Shown: positions 12,415 to 28,446 of the stretch, piece after piece
Numbering within the stretch: the stretch's first letter is position 1
Layout of the letters: each line of letters opens with the position of its first letter
Virus record (IMG/VR): IMGVR_UViG_3300025715_000009
Span: 288,001-352,000 of that record
DNA: 64,000 nt
Reading direction: 5' to 3' (one strand)
Source of the DNA: a virus
Taxonomy: Duplodnaviria; Caudoviricetes
Program-made: the position numbers and the translations under genes
The notes under the pieces: generated by a model
What the model was told of the DNA's origin: nothing
The model's input: the letters and a program-made list of their open reading frames with translations, nothing else
Database searches by the model: none

Positions 12415-12435
12415 TCGTATGCGTATTGAATTTAC

Positions 12436-12507
12436 TAGACCCACACCGAATTGAACGGTGATCTAAACTTTATCAGAGTTTCATACTTACCTTTATACTA
12501 TGGGTCT
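12436..12507 (-). tRNA. tRNA-Ile(GAU) with divergent D-arm
   Basis: AGACCCA/TGGGTCT acceptor; AAACT-CTGATAA-AGTTT arm. Confidence 0.85.
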
Positions 12508-13302
12508 ATGTTCTTCATAAAGAGAAATAAAATCACTACCATATTTCTCTATTACATAATCTAAATATATTTTCATATCATCTTTCTCTAAAACCTTAAG
12601 TCTTTGTTTAAATTGACTTATTTTTGTTATACATTTTTTGTCTTTATATCCTTTTATTTCAAAATATTCTCCATCAATAATAAAATCTGGATAATATTTA
12701 TATTCTTTTCCTTCATATATATAAGTAAATCCAGTAAAATTTCTATTAAATAAAATTCCATGCTCTATATTATAAATAACAAATGCTAATTCCCAACTAC
12801 TTTGACAATAATATCCTTTATACCATCCTCTATGTCCTTTTCCAGACATTTTTCTTAAACCACCACCCCTTGAACAATTTTTAAGCCATTCTTCTTTATG
12901 GTTTTTTTGATATATTGCAAAACCTCCTCTTATTTCTTTGGGTAATTTTTGTAAACGTTTACTTACTTTTTCAGCACTTTTTCTAACTGACTCTGAAGTT
13001 TCTTTAGTTAAACTTTTATTCCACGAAGGTTTGCCAATTTGAAGTTTATGTCTTTTTTCTAAAGATTTAAAATGTCTTTTTCTCCCCTCTTCAGTATGAT
13101 TAATAATAATGTGAGAACATATTCCTTTTTTACATACTAATTTCTGACATTCTGGACATTTATATAATCCTGAAATTTCGTCGTACCATTCTTCATCAAT
13201 TTTTAGTTGATGTTTTTTTTCTTTGAAATGAGATTGAAAATGTCGCTCATAAACAGATAAACTAACCAATCTATTACATACTTCACAATTTTTATATTTC
13301 AT
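12493..13302 (-). CDS. Zn-finger plus PD-(D/E)XK (TnsA-N-like) free-standing endonuclease
   Basis: CEVC...H...H and CPEC...H...H fingers, PSWNK NUMOD-like segment, QSSWE...YYPDFII..EIKGY. Confidence 0.8.
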   Translation of the reverse strand: MKYKNCEVCNRLVSLSVYERHFQSHFKEKKHQLKIDEEWYDEISGLYKCPECQKLVCKKGICSHIIINHTEEGRKRHFKSLEKRHKLQIGKPSWNKSLTKETSESVRKSAEKVSKRLQKLPKEIRGGFAIYQKNHKEEWLKNCSRGGGLRKMSGKGHRGWYKGYYCQSSWELAFVIYNIEHGILFNRNFTGFTYIYEGKEYKYYPDFIIDGEYFEIKGYKDKKCITKISQFKQRLKVLEKDDMKIYLDYVIEKYGSDFISLYEEHRPIV

Positions 13303-13306
13303 ACAA

Positions 13307-13313
13307 TTATCTT
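13307..13313 (-). promoter_or_regulatory. AAGATAA promoter-like motif inside a hairpin that sequesters the start codon
   Basis: ATATTTCATACA (13294-13305) pairs with TGTATGAAATAT (13332-13343). Confidence 0.65.
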
Positions 13314-13373
13314 ATATGGTTAGAGCAATTATGTATGAAATATATAAAAAAATTTACGAATTCCAAAAGGCTG

Positions 13374-13387
13374 TGAGCTAATCCCGC
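13374..13387 (-). pseudogene. Orphan tRNA 5' fragment GCGGGATTAGCTCA
   Basis: 7-nt acceptor strand plus TA plus GCTCA, then abrupt loss of tRNA structure. Confidence 0.55.
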
Positions 13388-13800
13388 ATGTTTTCTAAAT
13401 ATCCTTTGCATCCAAGATCAGTGATCTCTATTTCTAAATACCACCCATGATCCTCTTTTTCAAACTGAATACCACCTTCAAACGGAACAATTGCAAAATT
13501 CAAATTTTCTAAATATGTAGCCAAGTGTTTTGCCATATTATATACATAATCTGATATTACAAAATCTTTAGTCTCTTTAAAAAAATCTATTCTTTCTTGC
13601 AAGTTCATTCTATTTTTTTCTTTATATAAACTGTTTTCGCTAATTTTTGTATTTCTTTTAAATCAACTTCATTTTTGGCTTCAAGTAATAAAGCAACAAT
13701 CATAGCATCAACATCTTTTTTAAGAATGATTTTTTTTGATTGTTCTGTCTGTTCTACTATTTCACCTTTTTCAAAATCATAAATCATACTCATTCCTCTA

Positions 13801-13872
13801 AGCGCCGAGAGGGAGTCGAACCCTCGTCTCCAGCTTGGAAGGCTGGGGTAATAGCCGTTATACGACCGGCGC
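13801..13872 (-). tRNA. tRNA-Gly(UCC)
   Basis: CCAGC-CTTCCAA-GCTGG arm. Confidence 0.95.
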
Positions 13873-13972
13873 AAATTAAGGGGATTTTTTTAACTACGGT
13901 TCCCCTCAAAACCACGTTTAAGATTTGGGCGCATAATGCGCGGCTCACCTTATCAGACACAACGGTCTGATT

Positions 13973-14046
13973 TGTCGGCGATGGGATTTGAACCCATAGG
14001 TCTTGGACTCTGAAACCAAGAAGTCTGCCAATTCCTTCACGCCGAC
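13973..14046 (-). tRNA. tRNA-Leu(CAG), atypical
   Basis: Leu-type D-loop GAATTGGCAGAC; CTTGG-TTTCAGAGT-CCAAG arm (U-U closing pair); short variable arm. Confidence 0.7.
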
Positions 14047-14130
14047 TAGTTCCCAACCTGCTAAACCGTAGGAAATGGTTGGTGTTGGTATGTCATAAAC
14101 ATATTATATCTTGTTTATTTCTCTTCTAAA

Positions 14131-14439
14131 TTATTCGTAGATGAAAAGATTTTTTGTTCTAAGGTTCCATTTGTTTCCATCTTTGAACATTACATTTCTA
14201 TACCCAGGAAGATCTTCATTTCTACTCTCTGCAAAAGCACGAACAAGAGTAGTAGACTTGTTTTCATCTTTGACTCGTAGAATATCATTTGTTTTATCAT
14301 AACAAATCTTACCAATATTCTGCTTGATAAACGCCCGGCTATCATTATCAACAAGCACTTCAAAATTCCTACCCCACCCCCTGCCAACATGTTCAAGAAC
14401 CATCTTTCCACCAGCCATAGACTTAATCTTCATATTCAC
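14131..14439 (-). CDS. Hypothetical protein with a degenerate HNH_3-like C-terminus
   Basis: VMFKDGNKWNLRTKNL resembles V.H.DGN..NN...NL but lacks the catalytic His. Confidence 0.5.
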   Translation of the reverse strand: MNMKIKSMAGGKMVLEHVGRGWGRNFEVLVDNDSRAFIKQNIGKICYDKTNDILRVKDENKSTTLVRAFAESRNEDLPGYRNVMFKDGNKWNLRTKNLFIYE

Positions 14440-14476
14440 TCCTTGATATATATTAGAACTTCTATGAAGTTCGTTT

Positions 14477-14548
14477 TACGCCTACCAGGAATCGAACCTG
14501 GATAATCTGCTTAGAAGGCAGAGACTTTGTCCATTAAGTTATAGGCGC
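14477..14548 (-). tRNA. tRNA-Arg(UCU)
   Basis: TCTGC-CTTCTAA-GCAGA arm. Confidence 0.93.
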
Positions 14549-14574
14549 TCGTTTATTAACGTTTTTAAATATGC

Positions 14575-15510
14575 TCATGGATAATGATTTTCATATAGAT
14601 CAGGATGTTTATTTCTAAATTTTAGATTTTCTTCAGATACATCAAGACAAAAAATTTTTATATGGCTTTTAAAACAAGCGCCAAAATGATAAGCACTAAC
14701 TTTATGAAAATTCATATCATATGGTGGAACTATTTGAGTATAAAAAGAATCATTTTCATATTTACAAAAACTTGAAGATAAGTCAAATACTCTTGAATTA
14801 TCAATAACATCAAAATTAAAATCAAACAAATAATTAAATAAAAATTGATCTACTCCCCATACAATAGGTGCTAACCCTACTTGTATACATTCCTGATATT
14901 GATTTATTTTTTTAATAAAATTATCTCTATTCGCACCAAAATAACAACCCATTATTCCTTTTGTATATATTTTTTTAAACATTAAATTTACTTTATTATA
15001 AAAGGATTCAATTTCATTTTCATCAATAGGGTGTCCTAACCACATGGGTGGATTTAACGTTCCACTAAAAATACAACCATTATCTGGAGTTTTATGATTA
15101 AATAAATCATCAAACCATACGTCTAAATCATATGCAAATATATTATCATATTTTATATTAGATTGAATATAATTTAATGCATCAACATGTCTCCAATACA
15201 TTAACTCTTTATAATCTTGAAAAGCAAAAGTTCTTTCAATATATTTTATTTGTATATCTAATTTTTTTGCTAAATTTCTAATTTTTGAAGGGATAGGTCC
15301 ACCATAAAAAAATATAATTACATCATCATTATATTTTGCAACATGTCTTAAAGAAATCATAAAATCAATCATATGTCCGAGTGAATGATCCATAACATCA
15401 TATCTAAATATAGATTCATTGCTTTGATTTAAAAGTTTAGAATCCAAATATGTTGTTGGTTTTCCATGATTAGATGTTGTGAGTAAAAGACTAGCATAAA
15501 CTAAATTCAT
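14575..15510 (-). CDS. Putative glycosyltransferase (GT-A-like)
   Basis: AYDLDVWF DxD motif and late DQFLFNY motif. Confidence 0.5.
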   Translation of the reverse strand: MNLVYASLLLTTSNHGKPTTYLDSKLLNQSNESIFRYDVMDHSLGHMIDFMISLRHVAKYNDDVIIFFYGGPIPSKIRNLAKKLDIQIKYIERTFAFQDYKELMYWRHVDALNYIQSNIKYDNIFAYDLDVWFDDLFNHKTPDNGCIFSGTLNPPMWLGHPIDENEIESFYNKVNLMFKKIYTKGIMGCYFGANRDNFIKKINQYQECIQVGLAPIVWGVDQFLFNYLFDFNFDVIDNSRVFDLSSSFCKYENDSFYTQIVPPYDMNFHKVSAYHFGACFKSHIKIFCLDVSEENLKFRNKHPDLYENHYP

Positions 15511-15659
15511 TTTGGAAATGTCAATTCCAAGCATCCATCTTCTAATTCTTTAATCAAGACATCATCTCCAGGATGGATATCAAATGTCTTAATTATTTCT
15601 TCTGGAAGAGGAAGCACATATTCGCCTGTTTTTGGATCTATTTCAAGTTTTACTATCAT
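15507..15659 (-). CDS. AbrB/MazE-like small DNA-binding protein (50 aa)
   Basis: MIVKLEIDPKTGEYVLPLPEEIIKTFDIHPGDDVLIKELEDGCLEL. Confidence 0.65.
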   Translation of the reverse strand: MIVKLEIDPKTGEYVLPLPEEIIKTFDIHPGDDVLIKELEDGCLELTFPK

Positions 15660-16778
15660 GTATATAACTATGCTGAAAAAATAGTTAAAATACTCTCTCC
15701 ATACTTATTTAAAAAAGAACGCAATATAATTTTAATAGATGAAATATCAAACCCATTTTTCCAATATTTTGGATTAGAAGATATTTTTTTTCTCCACAAT
15801 AAAAATGCTGATTTAATTTCTTCATCTGAAAATTTGGACATATCTAAAATTAGCTTGTGTTTTGCTTCATATATGTTTGGAGTGTCAAATGCAACTAAAA
15901 CTGGACCTACTACATTCAATTTATCTATTGCTATAATGATGGGGAATGCAAAGCCATAATCATAATATTCAACAAGAGAAAAAGCATCATAATTTAATAA
16001 TCTTTGATTTAAAGGCCAATTTGTAACCATTAATAATGCAGGATCAGTTTTTGAGTAAGATGATATATTTGGCAAAGTATCTAAAAATGCTTGAGCTGCT
16101 ATTTCTCCTCTTTTATGACTATGTAAAGTAAAAAGAACATAACCATAACATCCATAGCCTGGTTCTTGTTGGCCTCTAATAATATAACTACCTACTGGTA
16201 TTCTATATTCTGGGCTTTGGACTGTAAATTCTGAATTTAAAACACAAGATGCTAATAATAAATAAATAAGACTAATCAATATTCTCATTTTTTCTTCCTG
16301 CACAAAATAGATGATATAATTGTAATTATACTAACATAAAAAAGAGCTATAAGACCAATAGCTCCTGCATTTAGAGGATTAAGAGAATCGCTTAATAAAA
16401 ACACTGTAATTGAAGTTAAAATAAGAGATAAGAATATATTAAAAGGAAGTGATTTCATAAGATTATCTTATGAAAAAAGAATAAATTATGATTTTTTTCT
16501 TTCGTACCCTAATTCTGTTATAGCATTACGATATTTATTTAATCTATTTTCCATAGCTATACCACGTTCTTTCATATCATCTAAAAGAGAAAATGCTCGA
16601 TCTGTTATTTCTATTAATTGTTCTTGTAGTTTTGGTATTTCACTAATAGTAGCGTCAGTGAAATTTAATTCTCGTATAGCTTCTATTTCATATCTAAGAT
16701 GATCATTTAAATGACAAATATATTGTTTTTGCTTTATAGGTTCAACTTTCTTTCTAGGCATACAAAACTCCTATAAAT

Positions 16779-17456
16779 TTAAATTCCAAAAATTTGCTGG
16801 AATTTTTTAAAGACATCATTATCAACAAAATAATCTATATAATCATAAAATTTTGATTCAAACATTAGCTGATCTTTTAAATTACTATTTTTATAAATAG
16901 AAAAACAATTATCTAATAAAAAAATTTTAATGTATTTATTATCTAGTTTAATTTTATCAATATAAATTCGTTCTTCGCCTTCTTTGTTTATTAAATTATA
17001 TAAATAATTATATATTTTATTGTGTAATTTTTTATAATCAAAATTTGAAAAATTTTCTTTATATTTTTTAACGTTATTAATAATATCTTTTTTATTATCT
17101 AATAGTTTATATTTGTTTAAAATTTCTTCTATTTCTTTTTCAAAATTTAAAACCGGTTCATTTATTGGTTTTGCTTTTATATTATGGATTTTATCATTTA
17201 CAATATCAAATTGTATTTCAAATCTAGCAACAAGATTTTTTGAATTAGGGCCAGTTATTGATTCAATATCTTTAGATCCAGATGGTCTTATAACAGATAT
17301 TTGATCTAAATTTTGATTTAAGTTAGAATAAGTACTTCCAGATTTAATATAACCAGATTTTAAGATATTTAAAAAACCTATCATATTTGTGTAATGATAA
17401 AATAGTTTTTCTGAGCCAGATTCTAATAATGTGCCCAATAGCTCATCAAAATTCAT
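16779..17456 (-). CDS. Putative virion-internal protein
   Basis: N-terminus MNFDELLGTLLE followed by LFYHYT. Confidence 0.5.
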   Translation of the reverse strand: MNFDELLGTLLESGSEKLFYHYTNMIGFLNILKSGYIKSGSTYSNLNQNLDQISVIRPSGSKDIESITGPNSKNLVARFEIQFDIVNDKIHNIKAKPINEPVLNFEKEIEEILNKYKLLDNKKDIINNVKKYKENFSNFDYKKLHNKIYNYLYNLINKEGEERIYIDKIKLDNKYIKIFLLDNCFSIYKNSNLKDQLMFESKFYDYIDYFVDNDVFKKFQQIFGI

Positions 17457-17469
17457 GTTGCCTCTTTTA

Positions 17470-17558
17470 CGGAGAGAGAGGGATTTGAACCCCCGAACGG
17501 ATTGCTCCGTTGCCTGATTTCAAGTCAGGTGCAATCAGCCAGACTCTGCCATCTCTCC
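17470..17558 (-). tRNA. tRNA-Ser(UGA)
   Basis: CCTGA-CTTGAAA-TCAGG arm, long variable arm. Confidence 0.95.
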
Positions 17559-17564
17559 ATTTAA

Positions 17565-17635
17565 TTCGCCCAAATGGATTCGAACCACTACTAAAAGCTC
17601 CAAAGGCTCTTGTGCTACCGTTACACCATGGGCGA
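17565..17635 (-). tRNA. tRNA-Gln(UUG)
   Basis: AGAGC-CTTTGGA-GCTTT arm. Confidence 0.9.
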
Positions 17636-18012
17636 ATGTTTAATCGTTAAAATCTGAAGGCCTTCTTTCTTGTCTTTTGCATTTTTCACATTCTGCAAAA
17701 TCTTTTTTTCTTCCTTCTATAAAAGAAGTATGCATTTTGATTTCTCCACCACACTTGCAATAAAATCTTTGAGTTGTCGATGAAGTACGCGAGTTTTTAG
17801 ATACAGCCATTTATTAATTCCTCTCTTAATTTTTGTTTCCATCTTCTGGATAAACGATGTAAAAATTTTTGTCTTGTTGAATGATTGTGTAAATTCTTTT
17901 TAGGATTAGAATGATTGTGTCCACCACAACAACAATATTTATCACTATGATCACAACCATGATTTGAATCAGATGGAAAGAAAGAATCAGATTTCACATA
18001 TCCTCCAAATAA

Positions 18013-18050
18013 AGCCCCCGCGGTGAATCGAACACCGGACAAGCAGTTTA
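18013..18050 (-). pseudogene. Orphan 3' half of a tRNA (Thr-type)
   Basis: TAA-ACTGC-TTGTC-CGGTG-TTCGATT-CACCG-CGGGGGC-T begins 2 nt after the HNH stop codon. Confidence 0.75.
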
Positions 18051-18052
18051 AT

Positions 18053-18586
18053 TTAATAACTTTTTCCTTCTTTATATCTTTGACGTCTATAGTGCCTTCC
18101 TTTTCCTCTATTTCTACTTTTATATGTACCAAGTTGTGAATCACAGTTTGAACAAATCATTCTTAAATTTTCTCTAGAATTATTTGAACTGTTGCCATCT
18201 ATATGGTCTAATATAAATGGCATTGGTTTTCCATTCCATATTGGCTCTATACCACAAATAGCACATTTACTATTTTGTTCTTCAAGAATAAATGGTCTTA
18301 ATGATTTTGTCCATTTTCCATTTTCTTTCCATTTTTGAATGGCTTTTTCTTGTTCTTGTTTTCCATTTTTTTTACCGCCTTTACTTCTTTCATCAAATGA
18401 AAAACAATGATGTTTTCTGTTTTCTTTAGGAACCCAACATTCTCTACCTTTTAATGACAAAGAAACTTTTTTATTTATTTCTTCTCTTCTTTCTTTTGTA
18501 GCAAAACTTTTAGCACATTTAATTGAACAAAATCTTCCAGAACCGTAAGATCCGCCATGCTCATTACCACAGTTTTCACATTTCAT
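18053..18586 (-). CDS. HNH homing-type endonuclease with N-terminal Zn finger
   Basis: CENCG..GSYGSGRFCS..C; CAICG...LDHIDGNSSNNSRENLRMICSNCDSQ. Confidence 0.9.
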   Translation of the reverse strand: MKCENCGNEHGGSYGSGRFCSIKCAKSFATKERREEINKKVSLSLKGRECWVPKENRKHHCFSFDERSKGGKKNGKQEQEKAIQKWKENGKWTKSLRPFILEEQNSKCAICGIEPIWNGKPMPFILDHIDGNSSNNSRENLRMICSNCDSQLGTYKSRNRGKGRHYRRQRYKEGKSY

Positions 18587-18656
18587 TTTGAACTCCTCTG
18601 TTGAATATAATTTATCTTATACTCAAGAGTTCAAATAATCAAATATATTTTAAAAA

Positions 18657-18729
18657 AGCCCTGACCAGGAATTGAACCCGGATCTGAAGATTACAAGTCT
18701 ACTGTACTAGCCATTTGTACTATCAAGGC
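18657..18729 (-). tRNA. tRNA-Thr(UGU)
   Basis: GTAGA-CTTGTAA-TCTTC arm; GCCTTGA/TCAGGGC acceptor. Confidence 0.9.
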
Positions 18730-18784
18730 AAATTAATGTATCTAATGTATCCACAAATGGTTTCTCCAATAAAAACCATATGAT

Positions 18785-18856
18785 TCGGGGATGTAGGATT
18801 CGAACCTCTTCTTCTGGTCCCAAACCAGACGTGTCTCCCGTAGCACTGCATCCCCG
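18785..18856 (-). tRNA. tRNA-Pro(UGG), atypical (best folded as 8/4)
   Basis: TCTGG-TTTGGGA-CCAGA arm; CGGGGATG/CATCCCCG acceptor. Confidence 0.75.
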
Positions 18857-18917
18857 GATTAAACTATAGCATATAATAATATATGCATTTATCTTGTAAA
18901 ATAAGAAAGATAAATGT

Positions 18918-19250
18918 ATGAAACTAAAACAAATTTTATCTGAATTAGCCCAGTTAGAATATTCTTCTACTAAAGGCTCACAAAAACAATTATCTCAATC
19001 AGGAATTGAAAATAAATTTTTAGAAACAGTTGAAGCTGCTATAGCTGCAAGTCCTGAATTACAAAAAATGTTTGATGTAGAACAAGAACCTTATGATGTC
19101 CAATTAGAAAGACAAGGTGGAAATATTAAAATTATTCTCAATCCAGAACATGGTCAAAAACAAAGTATAGCAACATTTCCAATGTCATATTTAAGTAAGT
19201 ATTTTAACAATCCAAAAGGTTTAATTTCTTTATTGCTAAAACGTGGTTAA
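18918..19250 (+). CDS. Putative virion-internal protein
   Basis: AAGATAA 4 nt upstream of the ATG; N-terminus MKLKQILSE. Confidence 0.6.
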   Translation: MKLKQILSELAQLEYSSTKGSQKQLSQSGIENKFLETVEAAIAASPELQKMFDVEQEPYDVQLERQGGNIKIILNPEHGQKQSIATFPMSYLSKYFNNPKGLISLLLKRG

Positions 19251-19507
19251 AAAACTGTTTCCTCTACTTTAACTGGGATATGTTCATCTTGGCAACATTG
19301 TTCTATTTCTTGAATTGTTTGCTTGGCATTTACATCAATAAAGTGATCTACATACTCACAAAAATAATCATTTAACTCTGAATCATAATAAAATGCAATA
19401 CAATCATATCCAATTTGTATATCATCTTTAAAAAGATTTCTTATGGTGAGATTTTTTATAGAAACAGAATCATCATTACAATAAAAATTTAATTTATCTT
19501 TTAACAT

Positions 19508-19870
19508 TTACCACCACTCTTTATTATATGAAGTTAGAATAACATCCCAAATTTTATATTTTCTTGAATCAGGATTTGCATAAACTCTATCAAGCACAAT
19601 AATCATATCTTGAACAGTTCCAGAATATGTAGCCCATTCAAATAAAAGAGATCTAAGTGATTCAGCACTCCCAGTTAGTTTATCAGACCCTTGCATTTGT
19701 CCTAATAGCTGTCTTAAACTATCTAAGCCACTAAACCAACCTAAAACATATTTGGTTTTTTCCATACTTGTCCAGCTTACCCAAGTATAACCATCATTAT
19801 CTAATACTGATTGAGCAAAAACAAGATTTACAAGCAAACAAAACAATACAACAAGAAAGGCTTTTCTCAT
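19508..19870 (-). CDS. Secreted protein, paralog of 21988..22425
   Basis: Signal peptide MRKAFLVV...VFAQ; shared G..WV.....K..V.G.F.GL, WA and Y.K.WW motifs. Confidence 0.7.
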   Translation of the reverse strand: MRKAFLVVLFCLLVNLVFAQSVLDNDGYTWVSWTSMEKTKYVLGWFSGLDSLRQLLGQMQGSDKLTGSAESLRSLLFEWATYSGTVQDMIIVLDRVYANPDSRKYKIWDVILTSYNKEWW

Positions 19871-20146
19871 GTTTTCTCCTTGTTTATAAATATGCTTAAT
19901 TGATATTAATATTTGTTTCTGTATAATCAAATTTTTTCTTTATACTTAGCTTTATATCTTCACTTTTTTCAGAATGGGGGATATATATTGAATGTGTTTT
20001 AGTTTTAAAATTAATTGTAAACCCACATCCAACATAACCATATTTTGTTTCACAGCATGATTTAATATTATTTTTTTTATATAAATTATGAATTATAATG
20101 TTATCGATCTCATTGTTTTTTATTTCACCAAAAACGTTTTTCATGT

Positions 20147-20887
20147 TTACTCCTTTAGTTTTTTCATTGCTTTGATTCTGTTTCTTATTATTTTTTTAGA
20201 AAACCTAATATTCTTCATAGAAACAAAATATTCATATAAATAAATAATACTAAATGGCAATAATAAGCTAAATAAAACAAGTGTTAATGAAAGAGAGAAG
20301 ATTAAAACTTTTTGTTTATTTAATATTGAATAATAACTTTCAGCACTTGAATCTACTCCAATAGATGCTATATGATTTTTTGATTTAGAATATAGTGGAC
20401 CATAAGCACTTATACTATAAGTATCAAATTCTTCATCATAAGATGTTTCTTGTTCAATTAAAATTTCTGATGTAAATAAAGACTCAAGCATTAGTTCAAA
20501 ATTTGAAGTATCATATTTTTTACCTAAAAATTCAATCTCTTCATCAGCATCTATAATAAACGATACAATATTTACATCATTAAAAATATAAATATAAATA
20601 TATGTCACATATTCTGGATATAAATTTTTTATAAACTGCAAATTATTTTTAATTTTTGTATATCTAACTAAAACTTCTTCATTTGATAGATTCAATTTAC
20701 CTTGAGAATAAAGTATCAATTGCTCTAAACTATCAGGGCAAACTACTAAAGAAGTAAGTTTAATAATTCTTGCTAATTCTGATTTATAAGCCTGTTCAAC
20801 CATATTTGCTTTTGTATTATAGATAAAAAAGTATACAATTGTTGTAATTATGATTGTATAGAGAATAAAAAATATTGTTTTACGCAC
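20147..20887 (-). CDS. Stand-alone Cache-like extracytoplasmic sensor with two TM helices
   Basis: TM; YIYIY..FIIDAD..G.KYD...DEEFDTYSISAYGPLY...IASIGVD; TM; no output domain. Confidence 0.65.
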   Translation of the reverse strand: MRKTIFFILYTIIITTIVYFFIYNTKANMVEQAYKSELARIIKLTSLVVCPDSLEQLILYSQGKLNLSNEEVLVRYTKIKNNLQFIKNLYPEYVTYIYIYIFNDVNIVSFIIDADEEIEFLGKKYDTSNFELMLESLFTSEILIEQETSYDEEFDTYSISAYGPLYSKSKNHIASIGVDSSAESYYSILNKQKVLIFSLSLTLVLFSLLLPFSIIYLYEYFVSMKNIRFSKKIIRNRIKAMKKLKE

Positions 20888-20921
20888 ATTATCTCCTAAG
20901 ATTATCTTTTAAAAAAATAGT

Positions 20922-20992
20922 TTGCCTTATTTGGATTTGAACCAAAACACTGAGCTTCAGAGACTCGTATGCTACCATTACATCATAAGGCA
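20922..20992 (-). tRNA. tRNA-Gln(CUG)
   Basis: CGAGT-CTCTGAA-GCTCA arm; TGCCTTA/TAAGGCA acceptor. Confidence 0.85.
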
Positions 20993-21322
20993 TCGTTTTC
21001 ATATAATTCAGATAAATCTATTGCATATTGATTATCTTGTAAGTCATTACATTCACATGGAGAAATATTTAACCATGTCATAGCATCTAAGCATGAATAT
21101 AATTTCATTGCGTTTTTTCTGTTCATATATATGCAACATGCATTAAGCTTTTTATTATCTTGACTTATTGATGATAATTCTTTTATAGCCCAATTAGCAT
21201 AATTTTCAAAATTACTTCGGAGAGTAGAGTATCTACAATTTTTTCTTATTTGTTTTAATTTAATTGATTTGAAATCAAATTCTTTAAGAATTAAAATCTT
21301 ATCTTTATATTTAGTTAACATT

Positions 21323-21394
21323 TACTCTCACCAGGAATCGAACCTGGACTTTGAACTTAGGAGGTTCATGTTCTATCCATTAAACTATGAGAAT
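21323..21394 (-). tRNA. tRNA-Arg(CCU)
   Basis: TGAAC-CTCCTAA-GTTCA arm. Confidence 0.92.
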
Positions 21395-21412
21395 TTTATA
21401 AAAACTATTTTC

Positions 21413-21826
21413 TTAAATTCTTTTTGCTTCTATAATTCTCTTTACATTTTGATAAATTTTTGGAGATTCTTTAGTAGCCTCAGCTTCATTAGATCTAAAG
21501 AATTCACACATTTCAAATTCTGTCTCTTCATCTTCACCAAAATAAGATCCCCAACCGGATATAGAACCAACTCTTAAATGTTGGCTTGAATCAAAATAAA
21601 CCTTACCAGTGTCTGAATCAACTTCTTGGGTGTTATCGCTTGGTAATTCCACAATCCTTGTAATCTTCATTCTCATTCCACCTGGTTTAGTGTTGAGAAC
21701 CTTACCATAGATGTTAAACATTTCACCTTCAATGTGAACATAGTCATCTTTTTGCATTTCACTGAATGAAGAATATTGTTTAGATTCCTTTGCTTCTAAT
21801 AATTTATTAAAATCAGAAAAATTCAT
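21413..21826 (-). CDS. Putative virion-internal protein
   Basis: N-terminus MNFSDFNKLLEA; GGAGG RBS. Confidence 0.6.
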   Translation of the reverse strand: MNFSDFNKLLEAKESKQYSSFSEMQKDDYVHIEGEMFNIYGKVLNTKPGGMRMKITRIVELPSDNTQEVDSDTGKVYFDSSQHLRVGSISGWGSYFGEDEETEFEMCEFFRSNEAEATKESPKIYQNVKRIIEAKRI

Positions 21827-21907
21827 TACAACCTCCTAATGGTATAATATAATATATCTTTCTTCATTTAATAAAATAATTCAAAAATAATAAAATAATT
21901 CAAAAAA

Positions 21908-21980
21908 AGCCGCTTCTGAGAATCGAACTCAGATTACTTGTTTACGAAACAAGCGTAATAATCCATTATACGAAAGCGGC
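21908..21980 (-). tRNA. tRNA-Thr(CGU)
   Basis: CTTGT-TTCGTAA-ACAAG arm. Confidence 0.92.
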
Positions 21981-21987
21981 TTATTCT

Positions 21988-22425
21988 CTACTCTATATTC
22001 CACCAATTCTTATCATATTCTACTAGCAGGACTTCAATAATGCCATATTTTCTATTTTCTGGTTTCTCATATACTTTATCTAGAGAAACAATAACTGTCT
22101 GAACATTTACACTAAAATATGCCCAATTGCTAAACATCTCAAGCAAATCATATGCTACTTTTGTATCGCCTGTGTAATTATTAACCAGTAATTCTTTAAA
22201 TTTTGGACTTTCTTGTAGTGCCCAAACATATTCTAGCATGGTGTTAAGACCAAAGAAAATGCCTCTAACAAATGTTTCTTTTGTAGATGTAGTGAATGTT
22301 ACCCAGTTTTCCCCATTAAGAGTTAAAATTCCTCTATCTGGTCTAGGTGGAGAATCACTAATTTGAGCAAATGCAGAAAAAACTAGACTAAGAAAAACCA
22401 GGACAAACATAATCTTCTTGAACAT
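21988..22425 (-). CDS. Secreted protein, paralog of 19508..19870
   Basis: Signal peptide ending AFAQ; shared motifs with the paralog. Confidence 0.7.
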   Translation of the reverse strand: MFKKIMFVLVFLSLVFSAFAQISDSPPRPDRGILTLNGENWVTFTTSTKETFVRGIFFGLNTMLEYVWALQESPKFKELLVNNYTGDTKVAYDLLEMFSNWAYFSVNVQTVIVSLDKVYEKPENRKYGIIEVLLVEYDKNWWNIE

Positions 22426-22449
22426 CTTAACTCCTTTAAAAAAAGATTA

Positions 22450-22536
22450 CGGAAAGTGAGGGATTTGAACCCTCGGTGCCCTTACGAACACGCAATCTTA
22501 GCAGGATTGTGCCTTAGACCACTCGGCCAACTTTCC
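22450..22536 (-). tRNA. tRNA-Ser(GCU)
   Basis: CAATC-CTGCTAA-GATTG arm, long variable arm. Confidence 0.95.
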
Positions 22537-22537
22537 A

Positions 22538-22963
22538 TTAAATATGCAATATATCTATGTTATTTGATTCAAAAATTATATTATTAGGACTTACTGCCCA
22601 AGTATATCTCATCTTATCCAAAATAGCAGATACAATAACTTGAACATTTTTACGATTAAATCCATTTCCTCGAATTGAAGCTATCTCTAAATATAATGTC
22701 TTGTTTGCAGGTACATACCCCCAATAAAAAGTAAAATCTGTTTCTCCTTCTAATTTCTGCTTAATTTGAGCATGCTTCATGCCTTGCATGGAGATAAATG
22801 CTTCGCCTTTAGATGAATATACTCCTCGACCCCAATTAGATCCAAATGGTTGCATGGGTTGAGTTGAATCAATCCATCCTTTAGGAAGATATTGTTTAAT
22901 TGAAGAAAAAGAAGTAATAAGTTTGCTGACTGTTGCTTCTGTTAAAACTTTGTCAAACTTCAT
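22538..22963 (-). CDS. Putative virion-internal protein
   Basis: N-terminus MKFDKVLTEA. Confidence 0.55.
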   Translation of the reverse strand: MKFDKVLTEATVSKLITSFSSIKQYLPKGWIDSTQPMQPFGSNWGRGVYSSKGEAFISMQGMKHAQIKQKLEGETDFTFYWGYVPANKTLYLEIASIRGNGFNRKNVQVIVSAILDKMRYTWAVSPNNIIFESNNIDILHI

Positions 22964-23084
22964 GTTCTAATTCCTCTAGATATTTTTCAATATCTTTTTC
23001 TAAATCTTTGTCTTTAATTCTCATAAAAGTGAGAGCTTTGAGCATCCACTTTAATAAGAAAATTACAAGACTTGTTTTCATCTA

Positions 23085-23110
23085 GGTGATCGGTGGGAGT
23101 TGAACCCACC
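23085..23110 (-). pseudogene. Orphan tRNA 3' fragment (His-type)
   Basis: GTGGG-TTCAACT-CCCAC-CGATCAC-C: T-arm, acceptor strand and C73. Confidence 0.7.
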
Positions 23111-23159
23111 TTATATTATACTGAAATAATATCCTTTCTAAAATAATTTACAACTATTA

Positions 23160-23231
23160 GGGGTTTAGAGGGAATTGAACCCTCGACAGTGGTTCCACAG
23201 ACCACGGTTTTACCACTAAACTATAAACCCC
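23160..23231 (-). tRNA. tRNA-His(GUG) with encoded G-1
   Basis: GGGGTTTA/TAAACCCC acceptor; GTGGT-CTGTGGA-ACCAC arm. Confidence 0.92.
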
Positions 23232-23234
23232 ATG

Positions 23235-24050
23235 CTATTTTAATCCTAAACGAATTTCTTCTCTAATGATATCTTCATTGAACCATTTTATTAAAACCTT
23301 ATTTTGTTCTTCTGCTGCTTTCCATTTTAACAAATCTTTTTTTGTTGTATATCCTTTTGTTTCAATATAATAAGAATTATTAACTTTAAAATCAAACAAA
23401 TACATATGTTCTTTATTATCTTCATCTATATACACTATTCTATCTTTAGTATATTCCCAACATAAAATTTCTTTATTTTCTAACATTTTATCTAAAACAA
23501 AACATGTTCTTAATTCATATGTTCCTTGAACTTTTATGTTTTTATAGTAAAACCATTTTGTGGTTCCTCCATAAACTTTTTTACCATTCTTGTATTGTTT
23601 TTTTAATATATTAGATTGTTTATCTCTATGTTCTTGAGATTTTATTTTACATTGAAAACATAATCCAGATTTGGATTTTTTATTAATTTGTTTACCACAC
23701 TTGCAATATAAGCGTTTATATTTAGTTTTTCCCTTATTATGTGGTATTTTGCCTTTTATTTTAATTGATATTTTTAATTTTGTTTTTTCTGTATGTTTTC
23801 GGCTATTACCACAGGAATGAGAACAATATTTCCTTTCTTTTTTGTCTATATGCTGCGTTCCATCTTTTTTTATTTTTCTTTCTATTTCAAATTCTTTTCC
23901 ACATTTAAGGCATTTTTTTATTATTTTAACTCTTTGAAGAGTTAAAGAATTACTAGATTTTATATAAAGTTCTGGGTTATGTGATGCTTTATGACCACCA
24001 TATGCTGATGAGTTTTTAAATTCTTTTCCACATATTTCACATTTATACAT
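23235..24050 (-). CDS. Multi-Zn-finger plus PD-(D/E)XK (TnsA-N-like) free-standing endonuclease
   Basis: YKCEICGKEF...GGH..SH, CLKC, YCSHSC, HTEKTKLKIS NUMOD-like segment, QGTYE...YLFDFKV...IETKGY; probable start at 24050. Confidence 0.8.
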   Translation of the reverse strand: MYKCEICGKEFKNSSAYGGHKASHNPELYIKSSNSLTLQRVKIIKKCLKCGKEFEIERKIKKDGTQHIDKKERKYCSHSCGNSRKHTEKTKLKISIKIKGKIPHNKGKTKYKRLYCKCGKQINKKSKSGLCFQCKIKSQEHRDKQSNILKKQYKNGKKVYGGTTKWFYYKNIKVQGTYELRTCFVLDKMLENKEILCWEYTKDRIVYIDEDNKEHMYLFDFKVNNSYYIETKGYTTKKDLLKWKAAEEQNKVLIKWFNEDIIREEIRLGLK

Positions 24051-24077
24051 TATATTTGTTTTATATAAAAAAATAAA

Positions 24078-24155
24078 GGTGGTCGACGGGATTCGAACCC
24101 GCATTCTTTTCAGCCTGATCCACAGTCAGGTGCATAACCGTTCTGCCACGACCAC
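24078..24155 (-). tRNA. tRNA-His(GUG), no encoded G-1, enlarged variable loop
   Basis: CCTGA-CTGTGGA-TCAGG arm; GTGGTCG/CGACCAC-C acceptor. Confidence 0.88.
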
Positions 24156-24157
24156 AG

Positions 24158-24230
24158 TGGAGAATGCCGGACTTGAACCGGCCACATCCAGCTTGCAAAG
24201 CTGACGCTCTACCAGATGAGCTAATTCCCC
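24158..24230 (-). tRNA. tRNA-Ala(UGC)
   Basis: TCAGC-TTTGCAA-GCTGG arm; G3-U70 pair. Confidence 0.93.
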
Positions 24231-24396
24231 ATGATGAGTGAAGTATTATTTACATTTACATTTACTTCACTTACTTCTTTGCCACACAAACACTCTTTCT
24301 TTATCTTTACTAGTTTACCATCCTTGTAGATATAAATTTTTATTATACCTTGATTTATTGAGCAAAATTTACATGTATCACAATTCCATTCCATAG

Positions 24397-24469
24397 AGAC
24401 CCCGACAGGATTTGAACCTGCATAAAATGGATTTGCAATCCACTCCCTAGCCATTCGGGTCACGGAGCC
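24397..24469 (-). tRNA. tRNA-Cys(GCA)
   Basis: GTGGA-TTGCAAA-TCCAT arm; U73. Confidence 0.92.
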
Positions 24470-24587
24470 ACAGAAAACATAAAAGCAAGTAAGATGAAAA
24501 TAAAACCAGAAAAGAAAATAAAACTACCAATAAAACGAAATATAATCTTCATGCTTTTATTATATATTATATTTTAATCCTCTAAAA

Positions 24588-24670
24588 CGGAAACGGTGAG
24601 ATTCGAACTCACAAGCCCTCTCGGACCACTGGTTTTCGAAACCAGCGCCTTACCATTAGACTACGTTTCC
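24588..24670 (-). tRNA. tRNA-Ser(CGA)
   Basis: CTGGT-TTCGAAA-ACCAG arm, long variable arm. Confidence 0.92.
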
Positions 24671-24943
24671 ATAAATCTATAAATTAAATTGACAATATTC
24701 CTCTCCTTTTTGCATAAAATATTTTCCATCTTTTTCAAAAATAGGTGATAACACCCCATTTTCTTCTTTTTTACCAATAATAAAAGAAAATTTTTTGTCT
24801 TCATGCTGCAATATTATTTTTTTATTTGGATAATTAAGTTCTACAAGTTTATAGAGTAAATCATCAGTATTGTCATCTATAACTTCATAATTTAGTGGTG
24901 AGTTTTTATTTTCCATTTTTATTAAAAATTTTTGTATCATATA

Positions 24944-25016
24944 AGCCGCTTCCAGGAATTGAACCCGGGTCTTCAGTTTACAAGACTGTTGTAATAGCCA
25001 ACTATACTAAAGCGGC
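24944..25016 (-). tRNA. tRNA-Thr(UGU), second copy
   Basis: ACAGT-CTTGTAA-ACTGA arm. Confidence 0.9.
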
Positions 25017-25021
25017 ATAAG

Positions 25022-25094
25022 CGGGCATATCTGGTTACGATCCGGAACTACAAGATTGACAGTCTTGCGTGCAGAGCCACTACACTATACACCC
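25022..25094 (-). tRNA. tRNA-Asp(GUC), atypical T-loop ATCGTAA
   Basis: CAAGA-CTGTCAA-TCTTG arm. Confidence 0.82.
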
Positions 25095-25097
25095 ATA

Positions 25098-25182
25098 CGG
25101 AGAGAGGGAGACTCGAACTCCCAAGTCATATTTCAGACCACCTCGTTTCCAACGAGGCCAAATACCATTATCACATCTCTCC
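25098..25182 (-). tRNA. tRNA-Ser(GGA)
   Basis: CCTCG-TTGGAAA-CGAGG arm, long variable arm. Confidence 0.88.
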
Positions 25183-26083
25183 ATTGGTCCTCTTATAGAG
25201 GACCATTAATTTACTTCTTCTTTTCTTTTCTTATTGGCTCTTCATATCTAAGAGCACAATTCCAACAAAGACGACCATTTGGATCGTTCTTTTTTGTGCA
25301 ATCACTGCACCAAATCCAAACTCTCTCATAATCTTTTTTTGTGTCCATAAACACCTCCGATTAATATAGAGGTGTTTTTAACTTCCTTTCATTTGTGCTC
25401 CTATTTAAACTCTAAATTTTCATTTTTAGAAATAGCATTTAACATTCCATTACACAATTCTAACCCCATAGTTATATCATAATCATCAAATTGTGTTAAT
25501 AACAAACCCTTTGCTAATTCATTTACTGGCTTGTTAAATAATTCTAATGTTTTTTCTCTCAAAATAGGTTCAATTTTCTTTAATTGCTCTGGTGTTAATT
25601 CCCCGTCACAATCTGAATGATCAAAGAAATCATATAATGGGTGGTCTACAGAGATTTGTTCTAACCACACATCTTCTTTATATAAAAAATATAAGTCATC
25701 AGAAAATCCACATTGATTCCATATACGACGTCTATATTGTCCAAAACCAGAATATGACCAATGCGCATTACAATGTGAAAAATCTATTCCCATAATCTCT
25801 CCATTTATTTATTAAATATAGAAATTATAATTTTTTCTAGTGCTTCAAGAACTATATTTAAATTATCTTGTATATCTAGAGGTGTTAAGTATTCTTCTAC
25901 ATTTTCTTTTGGTACCTCACCTCTTACATAAAACCAGGGACCATTTTCTTTTGTTGCATTTTTATCAATTGGTATTGGTTCAAAAAAATAAACAACAGCT
26001 TTTTCACTTTTTTTTGTGCTAAAAACAAGACTATAATATCCAGCTTTTGTTTTACCAAATATCATAATATCCTCCTTACTTTA

Positions 26084-26154
26084 ATCCCTGACTAGGAGTC
26101 GAACCTAGACCGTAAGATTCAAAATCTTTTATGCTACCGCTACACCATCAGGGA
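26084..26154 (-). tRNA. tRNA-Gln(UUG), second copy
   Basis: AAAGA-TTTTGAA-TCTTA arm. Confidence 0.88.
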
Positions 26155-26157
26155 AAG

Positions 26158-26384
26158 TAATGAGGGCCTAGGACCCTCATTGTTGAGATTTGTAGTGCTC
26201 TCACACATTACAATTGTGCGCAAAGGGGCTCTCAAACCCTTTTAACCCACTGAGATTCATCAGCTCCCCATGTGGACCAGCAATATAGCACATCGAATTT
26301 AACGCCGAGATTGTGCAAAGGGCGTGCCAGGTCAGGTCATAAGGCCAACCACCTTTATTCACTCCAAAAGGTAAGGAGGAGTAA
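26158..26384 (-). ncRNA. Unidentified structured RNA between tRNA-Ala and tRNA-Gln
   Basis: GC-elevated, multiple hairpins (AAAGGG..CCCTTT; ATGAGGG-TCCTAGG-CCCTCAT), no credible ORF. Confidence 0.5.
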
Positions 26385-26385
26385 G

Positions 26386-26457
26386 TGGACACGGGGGGAT
26401 TCGAACCCCTTAGACCTGAATGCAAATCAGGCGCATTACCAGTTATGCTACCGGCCC
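26386..26457 (-). tRNA. tRNA-Ala(UGC), second copy
   Basis: CCTGA-TTTGCAT-TCAGG arm; G3-U70 pair. Confidence 0.88.
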
Positions 26458-26461
26458 ATGG

Positions 26462-26543
26462 TAGGTCAGGTTGGACTTTAACTAACATCTTCCGTAGTTG
26501 TTCATGACCAGAGCTACGGCGTTTTAATTATTACTACTGACCT
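26462..26543 (-). ncRNA. tRNA-like RNA with a 16-nt loop in the anticodon position
   Basis: AGGTCAG/CTGACCT acceptor, CCGTAG-CTCTGGTCATGAACAA-CTACGG arm, degenerate T-arm. Confidence 0.55.
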
Positions 26544-27060
26544 GTTTGTGCAATTTTATGATTAATTGCTGTAATCCTATTTATGCAAATTTTTCTCATA
26601 AAAGGCAACTTATATCTAAACAATCGAGAAAGAAAACAAAAGAATAGATTATCAGAACCATGAACAAGCTTGTAATAAAAGTTGATTTTACTTCTAAGGC
26701 TTTTCATATTTCTCCTTTAGCTTCTTTAGTAAGGCTAATTCCTCTTCCTCTTTTTGCTTTTTCATCAACTTTGCTTCAGCTCTTTTTCGCTTTCTTGCTT
26801 CAGCCTCCTTATTGCATCGAATAGCAAACTCTTCATTAGTCTCATCTCTTATTCCAAAAATGGTATAAGAGCCAGGAGCATGTTCATTATATGCATAATC
26901 ATAATCAATTAAAAATGACTTATATTTTGTTCTATCAACATCACCAATTAAAAGATTCCAGAGGTCTTCAGGAGTAGATATAGTATGTGAATCTAATCTC
27001 GAAACTGAATAGTTGTCTATTTCATCTCTTACTTCCATCTTTTCCATCATCTACTCCTTT

Positions 27061-27087
27061 TGCAAGATACAGGACTCGAACCTGTGG
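27061..27087 (-). pseudogene. 3' fragment of a disrupted Val-type tRNA
   Basis: ACAGG-TTCGAGT-CCTGT-ATCTTGC-A. Confidence 0.85.
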
Positions 27088-27094
27088 TAATACT

Positions 27095-27167
27095 TAGGGG
27101 CTGAAGGGTACGATCCTCCGACATCTACGGTGTAAACGTAGCGCTCTCCCAACTGAGCTAAGCCCCC
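27095..27167 (-). tRNA. tRNA-Val(UAC), atypical T-loop ATCGTAC
   Basis: CTACG-TTTACAC-CGTAG arm. Confidence 0.9.
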
Positions 27168-27907
27168 AAATTTAAAATCAATTCTACAAATTCTTCATAT
27201 TTCTTAACTACATAAAAATTCAATTTATTCTCTTTATATAGTTCTATTTTATCCAACCATTTTTCATATGACTTTTTAAAACTTTCGTAATTCTTAACTC
27301 TATCTCTATCAATTCCATCTAATTCAATCCAAATATCTTTATCAACTAAATATATATCACTTAGTCTTGATGAATTTGGCAAATATTTATGAGGATCAAA
27401 TCTTATATTTTTATCTTCTAAGAAATTAAAACATTTTTCTTCTAAAGAAGATTGAAAATATGTTCCAACCTTAGTATATCCTTTTTTTCCAAATCCACCT
27501 TTTCTCCCAATTTCTCCAAGTCTTTTTCTTTCTTTTAACGAAGAAGCATTTTTTTTATTTACTATAGACATTGTTAATTTAAAATCTGATGAACTTCTAT
27601 AACAATCCACACAATATCCAGTTTTATTACCATATTTTAGTAATTTATTACAAGTTTTACAATATCCATATATTTTCTTTTTTTTAATATTTTTAGGTTT
27701 TTTAAGTGATAATTTGACTCCTAATGAAATTTTTCTTTTCCATTCTTCTGAGTGGACATGCCCATTTGCACAAGATCTACTACAGAATTCTCTTTCATAT
27801 TTTGGAACATTTTGAAATCCATTTTCTGATATAGTTCTAAAAACTTCAAATTCTTTTCCACACTTTTTACATATTTTATTAATTGCAATTTTATTTAATT
27901 TTTTCAT
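27158..27907 (-). CDS. Zn-finger plus PD-(D/E)XK/DUF559-like free-standing endonuclease
   Basis: CKKCGKEF...FCSRSCAN, HSEEWKRKIS, CKTC..CVDC, QSSLE...SDIYL..DIWIELDG. Confidence 0.8.
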   Translation of the reverse strand: MKKLNKIAINKICKKCGKEFEVFRTISENGFQNVPKYEREFCSRSCANGHVHSEEWKRKISLGVKLSLKKPKNIKKKKIYGYCKTCNKLLKYGNKTGYCVDCYRSSSDFKLTMSIVNKKNASSLKERKRLGEIGRKGGFGKKGYTKVGTYFQSSLEEKCFNFLEDKNIRFDPHKYLPNSSRLSDIYLVDKDIWIELDGIDRDRVKNYESFKKSYEKWLDKIELYKENKLNFYVVKKYEEFVELILNLGA

Positions 27908-27964
27908 ATAATTATCTTATATAAACAAATCGAACCATGTGTTTTCTATATGTTATTTTTTCTT

Positions 27965-27982
27965 CAGCTGGGCTAATCTTGC
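27965..27982 (-). pseudogene. 5' fragment of the disrupted Val-type tRNA
   Basis: GCAAGAT-TA-GCCC-AGCTG; pairs 7/7 with the 3' fragment at 27062-27068. Confidence 0.85.
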
Positions 27983-27988
27983 ATAATA

Positions 27989-28062: not shown

Positions 28063-28069
28063 AATAATA

Positions 28070-28142: not shown

Positions 28143-28146
28143 ATGA

Positions 28147-28220: not shown

Positions 28221-28225
28221 GTTTA

Positions 28226-28435: not shown

Positions 28436-28446
28436 AAAACAGAATA

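Follow-up and report, generated by a model that had tools for sequence, protein, structure and literature searches.

In the 64,000 nt stretch of DNA studied here (the window, bases 288001–352000 of a 388,268-base IMG/VR virus record that is estimated to be 98% complete), two small blocks, each consisting of a nuclease gene and a complete transfer RNA (tRNA) gene, are nested inside the remains of another tRNA gene that has the same anticodon. They are part of an array of tRNA genes (41 called by ARAGORN in the window and 59 in the whole genome, all on the minus strand), and in closely related phages the same two sites hold the tRNA gene and lack the block. Below, such a site is called filled when the block is there and empty when it is not, the tRNA gene that is interrupted is called the resident gene, and the one that comes with the nuclease the carried gene. 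The blocks are probably cassettes of free-standing homing endonucleases which target tRNA genes and bring their own substitute for the gene they break. The two sites are referred to as loci A (isoleucine) and D (valine); two further nuclease genes in the same array, at loci B and C, and two more loci just outside the window, E and F, are discussed after them. Coordinates are collected in Table 1.

At locus D both ends of the resident gene are still present. The cassette contains a short expression signal, the gene for nuclease D and a tRNA-Val(UAC) gene, and the TAG stop codon of the nuclease lies 11 nt inside this tRNA gene, at tRNA positions 8–10. On its two sides are the fragments of a second tRNA gene, whose acceptor strands are complementary in 7/7 positions. 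Empty alleles were searched for by aligning contigs of four sludge metagenome runs to window positions 12000–29500, the contigs being recovered via variants of the flanking proteins. One of them, L072, matches the window with 98.3% identity along 1920 bases and holds an intact 75-nt tRNA-Val(UAC) gene (Rfam, 53.8 bits) at this site. The fragments in the window agree with that gene in 15/16 letters on the 5' side and 31/31 on the 3' side, and the cassette takes the place of the 28 nt in between (tRNA positions 17–44), which include the whole anticodon arm. A metagenome contig matches the window from 25175 to 27091 and then diverges exactly at the cassette boundary. Carried and resident tRNA-Val have the same anticodon and are identical in 44 of 76 aligned columns. 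The carried copy is the sole tRNA-Val(UAC) gene of the 388-kb genome, and the phage therefore relies on it for this anticodon. The filled allele is found in a third sample as well (L081, 97% identical). Another contig, L058, is not counted as independent, because at 99.84% identity it represents the same phage as the window.

Locus A has the same composition, with an expression signal, nuclease A and a carried tRNA-Ile(GAU), and here the TAA stop codon of the nuclease is 16 nt inside the tRNA gene, in its D-loop. Only the start of the resident gene is left; everything 3' of position 14 (about 60 nt) is missing from the window. The empty allele is in contig L071, which agrees with the window to 98.5% on one flank and 99.1% on the other. 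This contig joins window position 12421 to 13374 with 58 other letters between them, which complete a tRNA-Ile(GAU) gene, and cassette A is missing as one block. Again, carried and resident tRNA share the anticodon, and they are identical in 44 of 80 aligned columns. The same contig provides a reciprocal case. At L071:1–690 there is an A-like nuclease gene (69% DNA identity to A) which, together with an open reading frame (ORF) of 80 amino acids, substitutes all but the last 25 nt of a tRNA-Gly(UCC) gene, the upstream end of the insert lying beyond the recovered sequence. In the window, tRNA-Gly(UCC) is intact (13801–13872, minus strand). Near-identical phages that have these nucleases in different tRNA genes point to recent movement.

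At both loci the cassette boundaries fall inside tRNA genes, and at both, nuclease and tRNA are present or absent together. The middle parts of the two resident genes were found nowhere in the window's genome, even with 6 substitutions allowed. Therefore, the empty alleles are not deletion products of the filled form, and the fragments in the window are relics of the resident genes. An initial annotation, made from the window alone, had proposed that such elements invade a tRNA gene without splicing and compensate for the damage with a sequence-divergent isoacceptor, and it had named two things to look for: alleles with an intact resident tRNA, and nuclease and tRNA moving together as a cassette. 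Both were found at A and D, in phages that are 98–99% identical to the window. The deleted middles, the lack of any intron signal described below and the low identity of carried and resident tRNAs all support the proposal itself. The tRNA-Ile pair at locus A goes beyond the isotypes that the annotation had listed (Val, His and Thr).

Two more nested arrangements are found elsewhere in the genome. A protein search located a fifth paralogue just beyond the window (locus E), where the 5' and 3' halves of a tRNA gene (acceptor strands complementary in 7/7 positions, anticodon stem kept) flank a nuclease gene and a tRNA-Met, and where the ORF stops within the D-arm of tRNA-Met. At locus F, also outside the window, an HNH nuclease that is a paralogue of nuclease B lies between the halves of one tRNA gene. 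The 5' half at F keeps the anticodon loop of a tRNA-Tyr(GUA), and the nested tRNA-like sequence also reads GUA; this sequence was parsed by eye, has no ARAGORN call and stays below the Rfam threshold (tRNA-Sec model, 22.6 bits). Exact-pattern searches of IMG/VR returned no intact forms of the split tRNAs at D and E.

One has to ask whether these are intron-like inserts that are excised from the transcript (by a ribozyme, by RNase P or RNase Z acting at the nested tRNA, or with the help of a phage RNA ligase encoded at 29371–30015), so that the split tRNA is functional after all. The phage does have interruptions of this type. A group I intron of about 200 nt, supported by Rfam with 58.4 bits, sits in the anticodon loop of a tRNA-Leu(UAA), and two other tRNA genes have inserts of about 650 nt in the anticodon loop, with sub-threshold group I signals and shared intron ends. 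The RNA ligase gene lies within the tRNA array, and at cassette E neither strand of the anticodon stem has been lost. Cassettes A to F, however, contain no group I intron signal (Rfam Intron_gpI, no match at E <= 1), and with 28 nt including the anticodon arm missing at D, and everything 3' of position 14 missing at A, no tRNA can be rebuilt from the halves. Since there is neither an intron signal nor a resident middle, splicing cannot restore the resident genes of A and D. For these two loci the intron-like explanation is close to refuted, and as an account of the cassettes in general it is extremely improbable. The phage has both types of interruption in its tRNA genes, introns and cassettes.

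Of the other two loci in the window, C agrees with the pattern, with no empty allele to go with it, and B does so only in part. The initial annotation had described four nuclease genes, each abutting an intact tRNA and each accompanied by orphan tRNA fragments. All four ORFs exist on the minus strand within the tRNA array, and there are fragments at every one of the four loci. The three nucleases said to have a common domain and to be followed directly by a tRNA (A, C and D) do so, with an E...PD...ExK domain and a stop codon inside the tRNA or 3 nt before it. At B, the tRNA-Thr(UGU) is 70 nt upstream of the nuclease. It had also been suggested that the isotype of a fragment can be read from its acceptor stem. 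Rankings against 369 tRNAs, by similarity or by the acceptor stem, gave mixed results, and this approach was given up in favour of the empty alleles. By that measure the assignment to Val was right, and the assignment of the B fragment to Thr is unproven.

At locus C the order is tRNA-His no. 1, nuclease C, tRNA-His no. 2 and a 3' fragment. The fragment can pair with the 5' strand (of the G-1 type) of tRNA-His no. 1 with one G-U pair, and this pairing and its C73 fit a tRNA of the histidine type. Nuclease C and tRNA-His no. 2 are linked in two other contigs, L082 (94%) and L080 (80%). In L080, nuclease C is frameshifted, tRNA-His no. 1 is absent and the 3' fragment is reduced to its last 8 bases. 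Judged by these sequence comparisons, locus C is an old orthologous insertion; no empty allele for it was present among the contigs examined. At locus B, an orphan T-arm with a 3' acceptor strand follows the stop codon of the nuclease, and no 5' partner was found for it. A joint of positions 18010 and 18655 in one contig is a weak hint of a B allele without the HNH gene; one of its sides is just 23 letters long, and it may have arisen by cross-matching of T-arm-like letters. Several other joints with short sides (13660 to 24907, 23529 to 25531 and others) look like tRNA-to-tRNA cross-matches from other organisms and were not used. Locus B belongs to the cassette pattern only loosely.

The association of nuclease and tRNA extends well beyond this phage. 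Two scans of IMG/VR with alignments of the paralogues gave 55 loci, and in the larger scan about 37 of 50 loci lie within tRNA arrays on the same strand. Among the non-redundant relatives in arrays, 19 of 37 have their stop in the interval from 10 nt ahead of the next tRNA to 60 nt into it, compared to 6 of 62 other ORFs of at least 140 amino acids in the same arrays (Fisher p = 7e-6), and at least two of these six are themselves other nucleases. By this count the nuclease-tRNA junction is a family trait. Nested cases occur with other nucleases, too. In the unrelated contig L007, a DUF559 nuclease and a tRNA-Val(UAC) are nested in a Val-like gene that is broken after U34, with complementary halves (7/7). 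In L031, another unrelated contig, a tRNA-Ser and a nuclease-like ORF (judged without Pfam) are nested in a class II tRNA gene, again with 7/7 complementary halves. On the nuclease tree, the isotype of the downstream tRNA is more clustered than with shuffled labels, which is partly due to near copies. As a side observation, an unrelated viral contig of 161 kb has two tRNA-Leu(UAA) genes with a relative of nuclease D (40% identical) between them (L006:3816–5130). The junction 'CAAATTGCCC..' is repeated there and several stray tRNA pieces are present; mismatches in the acceptor stem of the second Leu gene mark it as a chimera.

Arrays of this kind might instead be subject to a more general form of churn, in which nucleases would break conserved tRNA motifs, and duplication, deletion and shuffling by short homologies would generate nuclease-tRNA pairs and fragments as by-products, with the carried tRNA as a hitch-hiker. 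There is precedent for such events in SegB, which cleaves many tRNA genes at a T-loop motif and whose tRNA-plus-segB unit is amplified with the help of microhomology (PMC2330249, PMC13096335). Stray fragments, chimeric tRNAs such as the one in L006, indels of 686 and 677 nt and a deletion of about 970 nt in L081 are in line with it, as is the frequent change of partner isotype on the nuclease tree. Yet random shuffling of some 59 tRNA genes would not be expected to give a shared anticodon at A, D and F, and a recent duplicate would be less divergent than the carried tRNA is. At least five inserts are flanked by the two halves of a single gene with 7/7 complementarity, and the overlap of ORF and tRNA is kept across distant relatives. 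Churn without a dedicated cassette is thus an unlikely explanation for the nested loci.

The nucleases A, C and D have a C-terminal E...PD...ExK domain and N-terminal cysteine-rich ribbons in common, and the motif is invariant across 32 sequences. Sequence searches point to the PD-(D/E)xK type with matches that are weak but agree with one another: PHROG families annotated as "endonuclease" match them, nuclease C has weak Pfam matches to Phage_endo_I (18.7 bits, compared to a cutoff of 29.1 bits) and to NUMOD3, and a PDB profile search gives a weak match to T7 endonuclease I (1m0d, E = 0.0037). An AlphaFold model of nuclease A, based on 32 relatives, has a predicted local distance difference test (pLDDT) score of 95–98 across the C-terminal domain. 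The best Foldseek matches to this model are all PD-(D/E)xK nucleases (TnsA, RecU, I-Bth0305I, Bax1 and T7 endonuclease I), with E values of at least 0.06; I-Bth0305I is a homing endonuclease. Nuclease C probably starts at the ATG at 24050 and not at 24104. Nuclease B matches the HNH families PHROG 10822 (E = 1e-23) and PHROG 14736 (E = 3e-15), and with 24.1 bits it is just below the Pfam cutoff for HNH_3 (24.8 bits). In none of the four proteins was a GIY-YIG domain detected in Pfam, PHROGs or NCBIfam. No recombinases were found among the ORFs of the region from 12 to 28 kb; the cassettes consist of one ORF and one tRNA.

Upstream of the nucleases, the exact motif TATAAGATAA is found 4 nt before the ATG of A and D, and 25 nt before that of the HNH nuclease B. 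It is also found 4 nt before a response-regulator gene (8552–8932) and before an ORF at 58029–59054. The idea of a cassette-specific signal was dropped because the response-regulator gene has the motif at the same distance from its ATG. Probably the motif is a general promoter or start signal of the phage, and its use possibly gives near-leaderless messenger RNAs.

It is worth considering that the cassettes are mobile and the nuclease is not what moves them. The nuclease would then serve marker exclusion or another role, and the block would spread by homologous exchange between related phages. The frameshifted nuclease C in L080, where the block persists, would be compatible with this, and the occurrence of TATAAGATAA, 4 nt and an ATG ahead of the response-regulator gene suggests a long residence in the phage. 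In contrast, three unrelated nuclease families (PD-(D/E)xK, DUF559 and HNH) have converged on one nested layout, the boundaries lie within the tRNA gene and not in flanking DNA, and paralogues sit in different tRNA genes of near-identical phages. Taken together, it is quite improbable that the nuclease is a passenger.

A cassette that moves by means of its own nuclease would work as follows. The mobile unit would be about 0.9 kb long and consist of a short phage-type expression signal, the nuclease gene and a complete tRNA that overlaps or touches the stop codon. In a mixed infection, the nuclease would cut the resident tRNA gene of the phage with the empty allele; the break would be resected and repaired from the cassette-bearing genome, with the tRNA stubs and flanks serving as homology. 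The filled allele would be immune, the region that is cut having been deleted, and the carried tRNA would escape cutting as it is only about 55–58% identical to the resident one. Since the carried tRNA would serve the same codons, decoding capacity would be kept, and splicing would be neither needed nor possible. The same kind of element would be able to move among different tRNA genes within the phage population. All of these steps (cutting of the resident genes, copying of the cassette during repair, escape of filled allele and carried tRNA, and compensation) are inferred from the sequences. One may also speculate that where the stop codon is within the tRNA, processing by RNase P could strip it from the nuclease message and in this way limit expression.

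Several observations weigh against this mechanism. The anticodon arms of carried and resident tRNA at locus D are identical in 15 of 17 positions, so that an enzyme reading this arm would not obviously spare the carried tRNA. On the left flank of D, the region of a tRNA-Asn differs between filled and empty alleles, whereas the right flank is 98.3% identical. The exchange was therefore larger than the cassette, which could reflect co-conversion or unrelated recombination. The resident tRNA-Ile in L071 scores only 29.1 bits and has a mispaired acceptor stem, and the "destroyed" gene may thus already have been defective. In the same contig, the A-like nuclease in tRNA-Gly is followed by the 80-amino-acid ORF and not by a tRNA. 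For the split gene at E, an isotype match to its tRNA-Met cannot be demonstrated. Locus C has an additional complete tRNA-His upstream, which the model does not need, and locus B is without the nested layout, no tRNA following its nuclease. Finally, in the wider family, the frequent switches of the downstream isotype along the nuclease tree count on this side, too.

Table 1. Features of the nuclease-tRNA loci and related sites. Positions are those of the window unless a contig is named; bits are Rfam scores.
Feature	Position	Strand	Remarks
Cassette A	12422-13373	(-)	952 nt; expression signal, nuclease A, carried tRNA-Ile(GAU)
Nuclease A	12493-13302	(-)	269 aa; N-terminal zinc ribbons and C-terminal PD-(D/E)xK-type domain
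Carried tRNA-Ile(GAU)	12435-12508	(-)	60.4 bits
5' remnant of resident tRNA-Ile(GAU)	13374-13387	(-)	14 nt; acceptor strand and start of D-arm; gene complete in L071
Nuclease B	18053-18586	(-)	177-aa HNH endonuclease with N-terminal zinc ribbon
tRNA-Thr(UGU)	18657-18729	(-)	upstream of nuclease B; self-consistent acceptor stem
Orphan T-arm and 3' acceptor strand	about 18013-18043	(-)	ends GGCT; just past stop of nuclease B
Nuclease C	23235-24050	(-)	271 aa; C2H2-type zinc finger, NUMOD3-like motif, PD-(D/E)xK domain
tRNA-His(GUG) no. 1	24078-24155	(-)	78 nt; 11-nt variable region; 57.1 bits
Carried tRNA-His(GUG) no. 2	23159-23231	(-)	68.8 bits; begins 3 nt past stop of nuclease C
3' remnant of tRNA-His gene	23085-23109	(-)	T-arm, acceptor strand, C73
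Cassette D	27092-27966	(-)	875 nt; expression signal, nuclease D, carried tRNA-Val(UAC)
Nuclease D	27158-27907	(-)	249 aa; zinc ribbons and PD-(D/E)xK-type domain
Carried tRNA-Val(UAC)	27094-27168	(-)	58.7 bits; unusual T-loop (ATCGTAC)
5' remnant of resident tRNA-Val(UAC)	27967-27982	(-)	16 nt
3' remnant of resident tRNA-Val(UAC)	27061-27091	(-)	31 nt; end of variable loop, T-arm, acceptor strand, A73
tRNA gene interrupted in anticodon loop	62665-63399	(-)
tRNA gene interrupted in anticodon loop	L004:67-359	(-)	just beyond window
tRNA gene interrupted in anticodon loop	L004:441-1177	(-)	just beyond window
TATAAGATAA sites	8936, 13307, 18612, 27912	(-)	exact motif match
TATAAGATAA site	58015	(+)	exact motif match

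The region has a G+C content of 30%, and its sequence is present in runs from anaerobic digesters and activated sludge. A megablast search with positions 12000–28500 found no close relatives among GenBank phages. The RNA ligase gene inside the array (minus strand) matches Pfam PF09414 with E = 2e-20, its best relatives in IMG/VR are at most 44% identical, and its location suggests a function in tRNA repair. A GOLLD RNA (Rfam RF02032, 183 bits) at 10349–10813 on the minus strand contains a tRNA-like gene, which ARAGORN places at 10666–10738 with an odd 4-base anticodon call; the variant contig L071 has kept the GOLLD RNA (183 bits). A suppressor-type tRNA with the anticodon CUA is located at 5264–5335 (minus strand), and about 160 nt downstream of it there is an orphan T-arm and acceptor fragment (5086–5102, minus strand) for which no partner was found. 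This tRNA raised the question of TAG stop codon recoding, for which the ORF statistics of the window showed no clear signal. Most tRNAs with leucine anticodons are 74–77 nt long and do not have the long variable arm that one would expect in a bacterial tRNA-Leu (e.g. 13973–14046 and 48811–48886), and several tRNAs have unusual T-loops, such as Val(UAC) at 27094, Asp at 25021 and Ile at 28147.

Other insertions and deletions are seen in the array as well. An ORF of 225 amino acids (16779–17456, minus strand), directly downstream of tRNA-Ser(UGA), has no match in Pfam or PHROGs; its 686-nt block is cleanly absent, with 9 other letters instead, in variants from three runs and in contigs L075 and L076. 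In the variant phage L073 (382–1050), an insertion of 677 nt between a 56-amino-acid ORF and tRNA-Gln(UUG) (window 17642–17648) encodes an ORF of 222 amino acids with a DxD-like motif and no Pfam match. Both ORFs were considered as nucleases and set aside, as there was no nuclease motif by eye and no Pfam match. About 970 nt of the region 25107–26080, with the small ORFs 25401–25793 and 25805–26065, are absent from the 96–97% identical variant L081, where tRNA-Gln is directly followed by tRNA-Ser(GGA).

Homing endonucleases are thought to persist within self-splicing introns and inteins, or between genes. If the reading proposed here is true, homing elements have, besides introns and inteins, a third way of residing within genes, which is to break the target and deliver a working substitute. 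This would explain the nuclease genes, tRNA fragments and same-anticodon duplicates in the tRNA arrays of large phages, and such elements would promote the turnover of phage tRNA sets and make them more diverse. We lean, if only slightly, towards a broader view, namely that cut-and-replace gene drives on the tRNA genes of large phages are widespread, with unrelated nuclease families (PD-(D/E)xK, DUF559 and HNH) each joined to a divergent tRNA of the same anticodon, which would allow them to destroy their target without cost to the host and without splicing. In nature, they would be the counterpart of the engineered gene drives known as "cleave and rescue", and their small nucleases, which are probably sequence-specific, come with defined candidate targets. 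A direct test of the idea is possible because public sludge metagenomes contain both filled and empty alleles. Full-text literature searches, with many subscription papers outside their coverage, returned no published description of nuclease and tRNA cassettes nested in tRNA genes of the same anticodon; what they returned was SegB (PMC2330249, PMC13096335) and broader accounts of endonucleases in the tRNA regions of phages.

SegB is a free-standing GIY-YIG homing endonuclease in the tRNA cluster of phages T4 and T6. By cutting tRNA genes it drives the inheritance of the neighbouring tRNA genes and displaces the tRNA markers of a rival phage (PMC2330249), and the unit of tRNA and segB can move or amplify as a block, helped by microhomology between the 3' end of the nuclease gene and the 5' end of the tRNA (PMC2330249, PMC13096335). 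The cassettes described here are similar in that a free-standing nuclease gene forms a block with a tRNA in a phage tRNA cluster. However, SegB lies between intact tRNA genes, is not nested and has no described same-anticodon substitute, whereas the cassettes have PD-(D/E)xK or HNH nucleases, their ORFs end inside the carried tRNA (A and D), and stubs of a resident gene flank them.

Group I introns with homing endonucleases occur in tRNA anticodon loops, for example in tRNA-Leu(UAA), and in tRNA-fMet with the PD-(D/E)xK enzyme I-Ssp6803I. They, too, are selfish nuclease-bearing inserts in tRNA genes, and an enzyme of the same type is known there, but introns keep the gene working by splicing, while the cassettes, which are without a ribozyme, remove a portion of the gene and bring along a separate, whole tRNA. 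Integrative elements and prophages insert in tRNA genes by means of an integrase and an att site, restoring the overlapped 3' segment. In common with these are the target, the preservation of function by the element's own DNA and the displaced fragment that is left behind, and the layout of loci B and C (complete tRNA, insert, 3' fragment) resembles them; in contrast, the cassettes have no integrase, are shorter than 1 kb and supply a whole, divergent tRNA. In fungal mitochondria, free-standing endonuclease genes carry a duplicate of the 3' end of the gene they interrupt, and in phages there are genes split by the insertion of an endonuclease, such as nrdA by mobE. These are likewise insertions of homing endonucleases in which function is rescued by carried DNA or the split is tolerated, but the genes concerned code for proteins and the duplications are partial, whereas the cassettes bring a complete substitute tRNA gene. 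Among these systems, the cassettes are probably a variant of the free-standing homing endonucleases with intronless homing.

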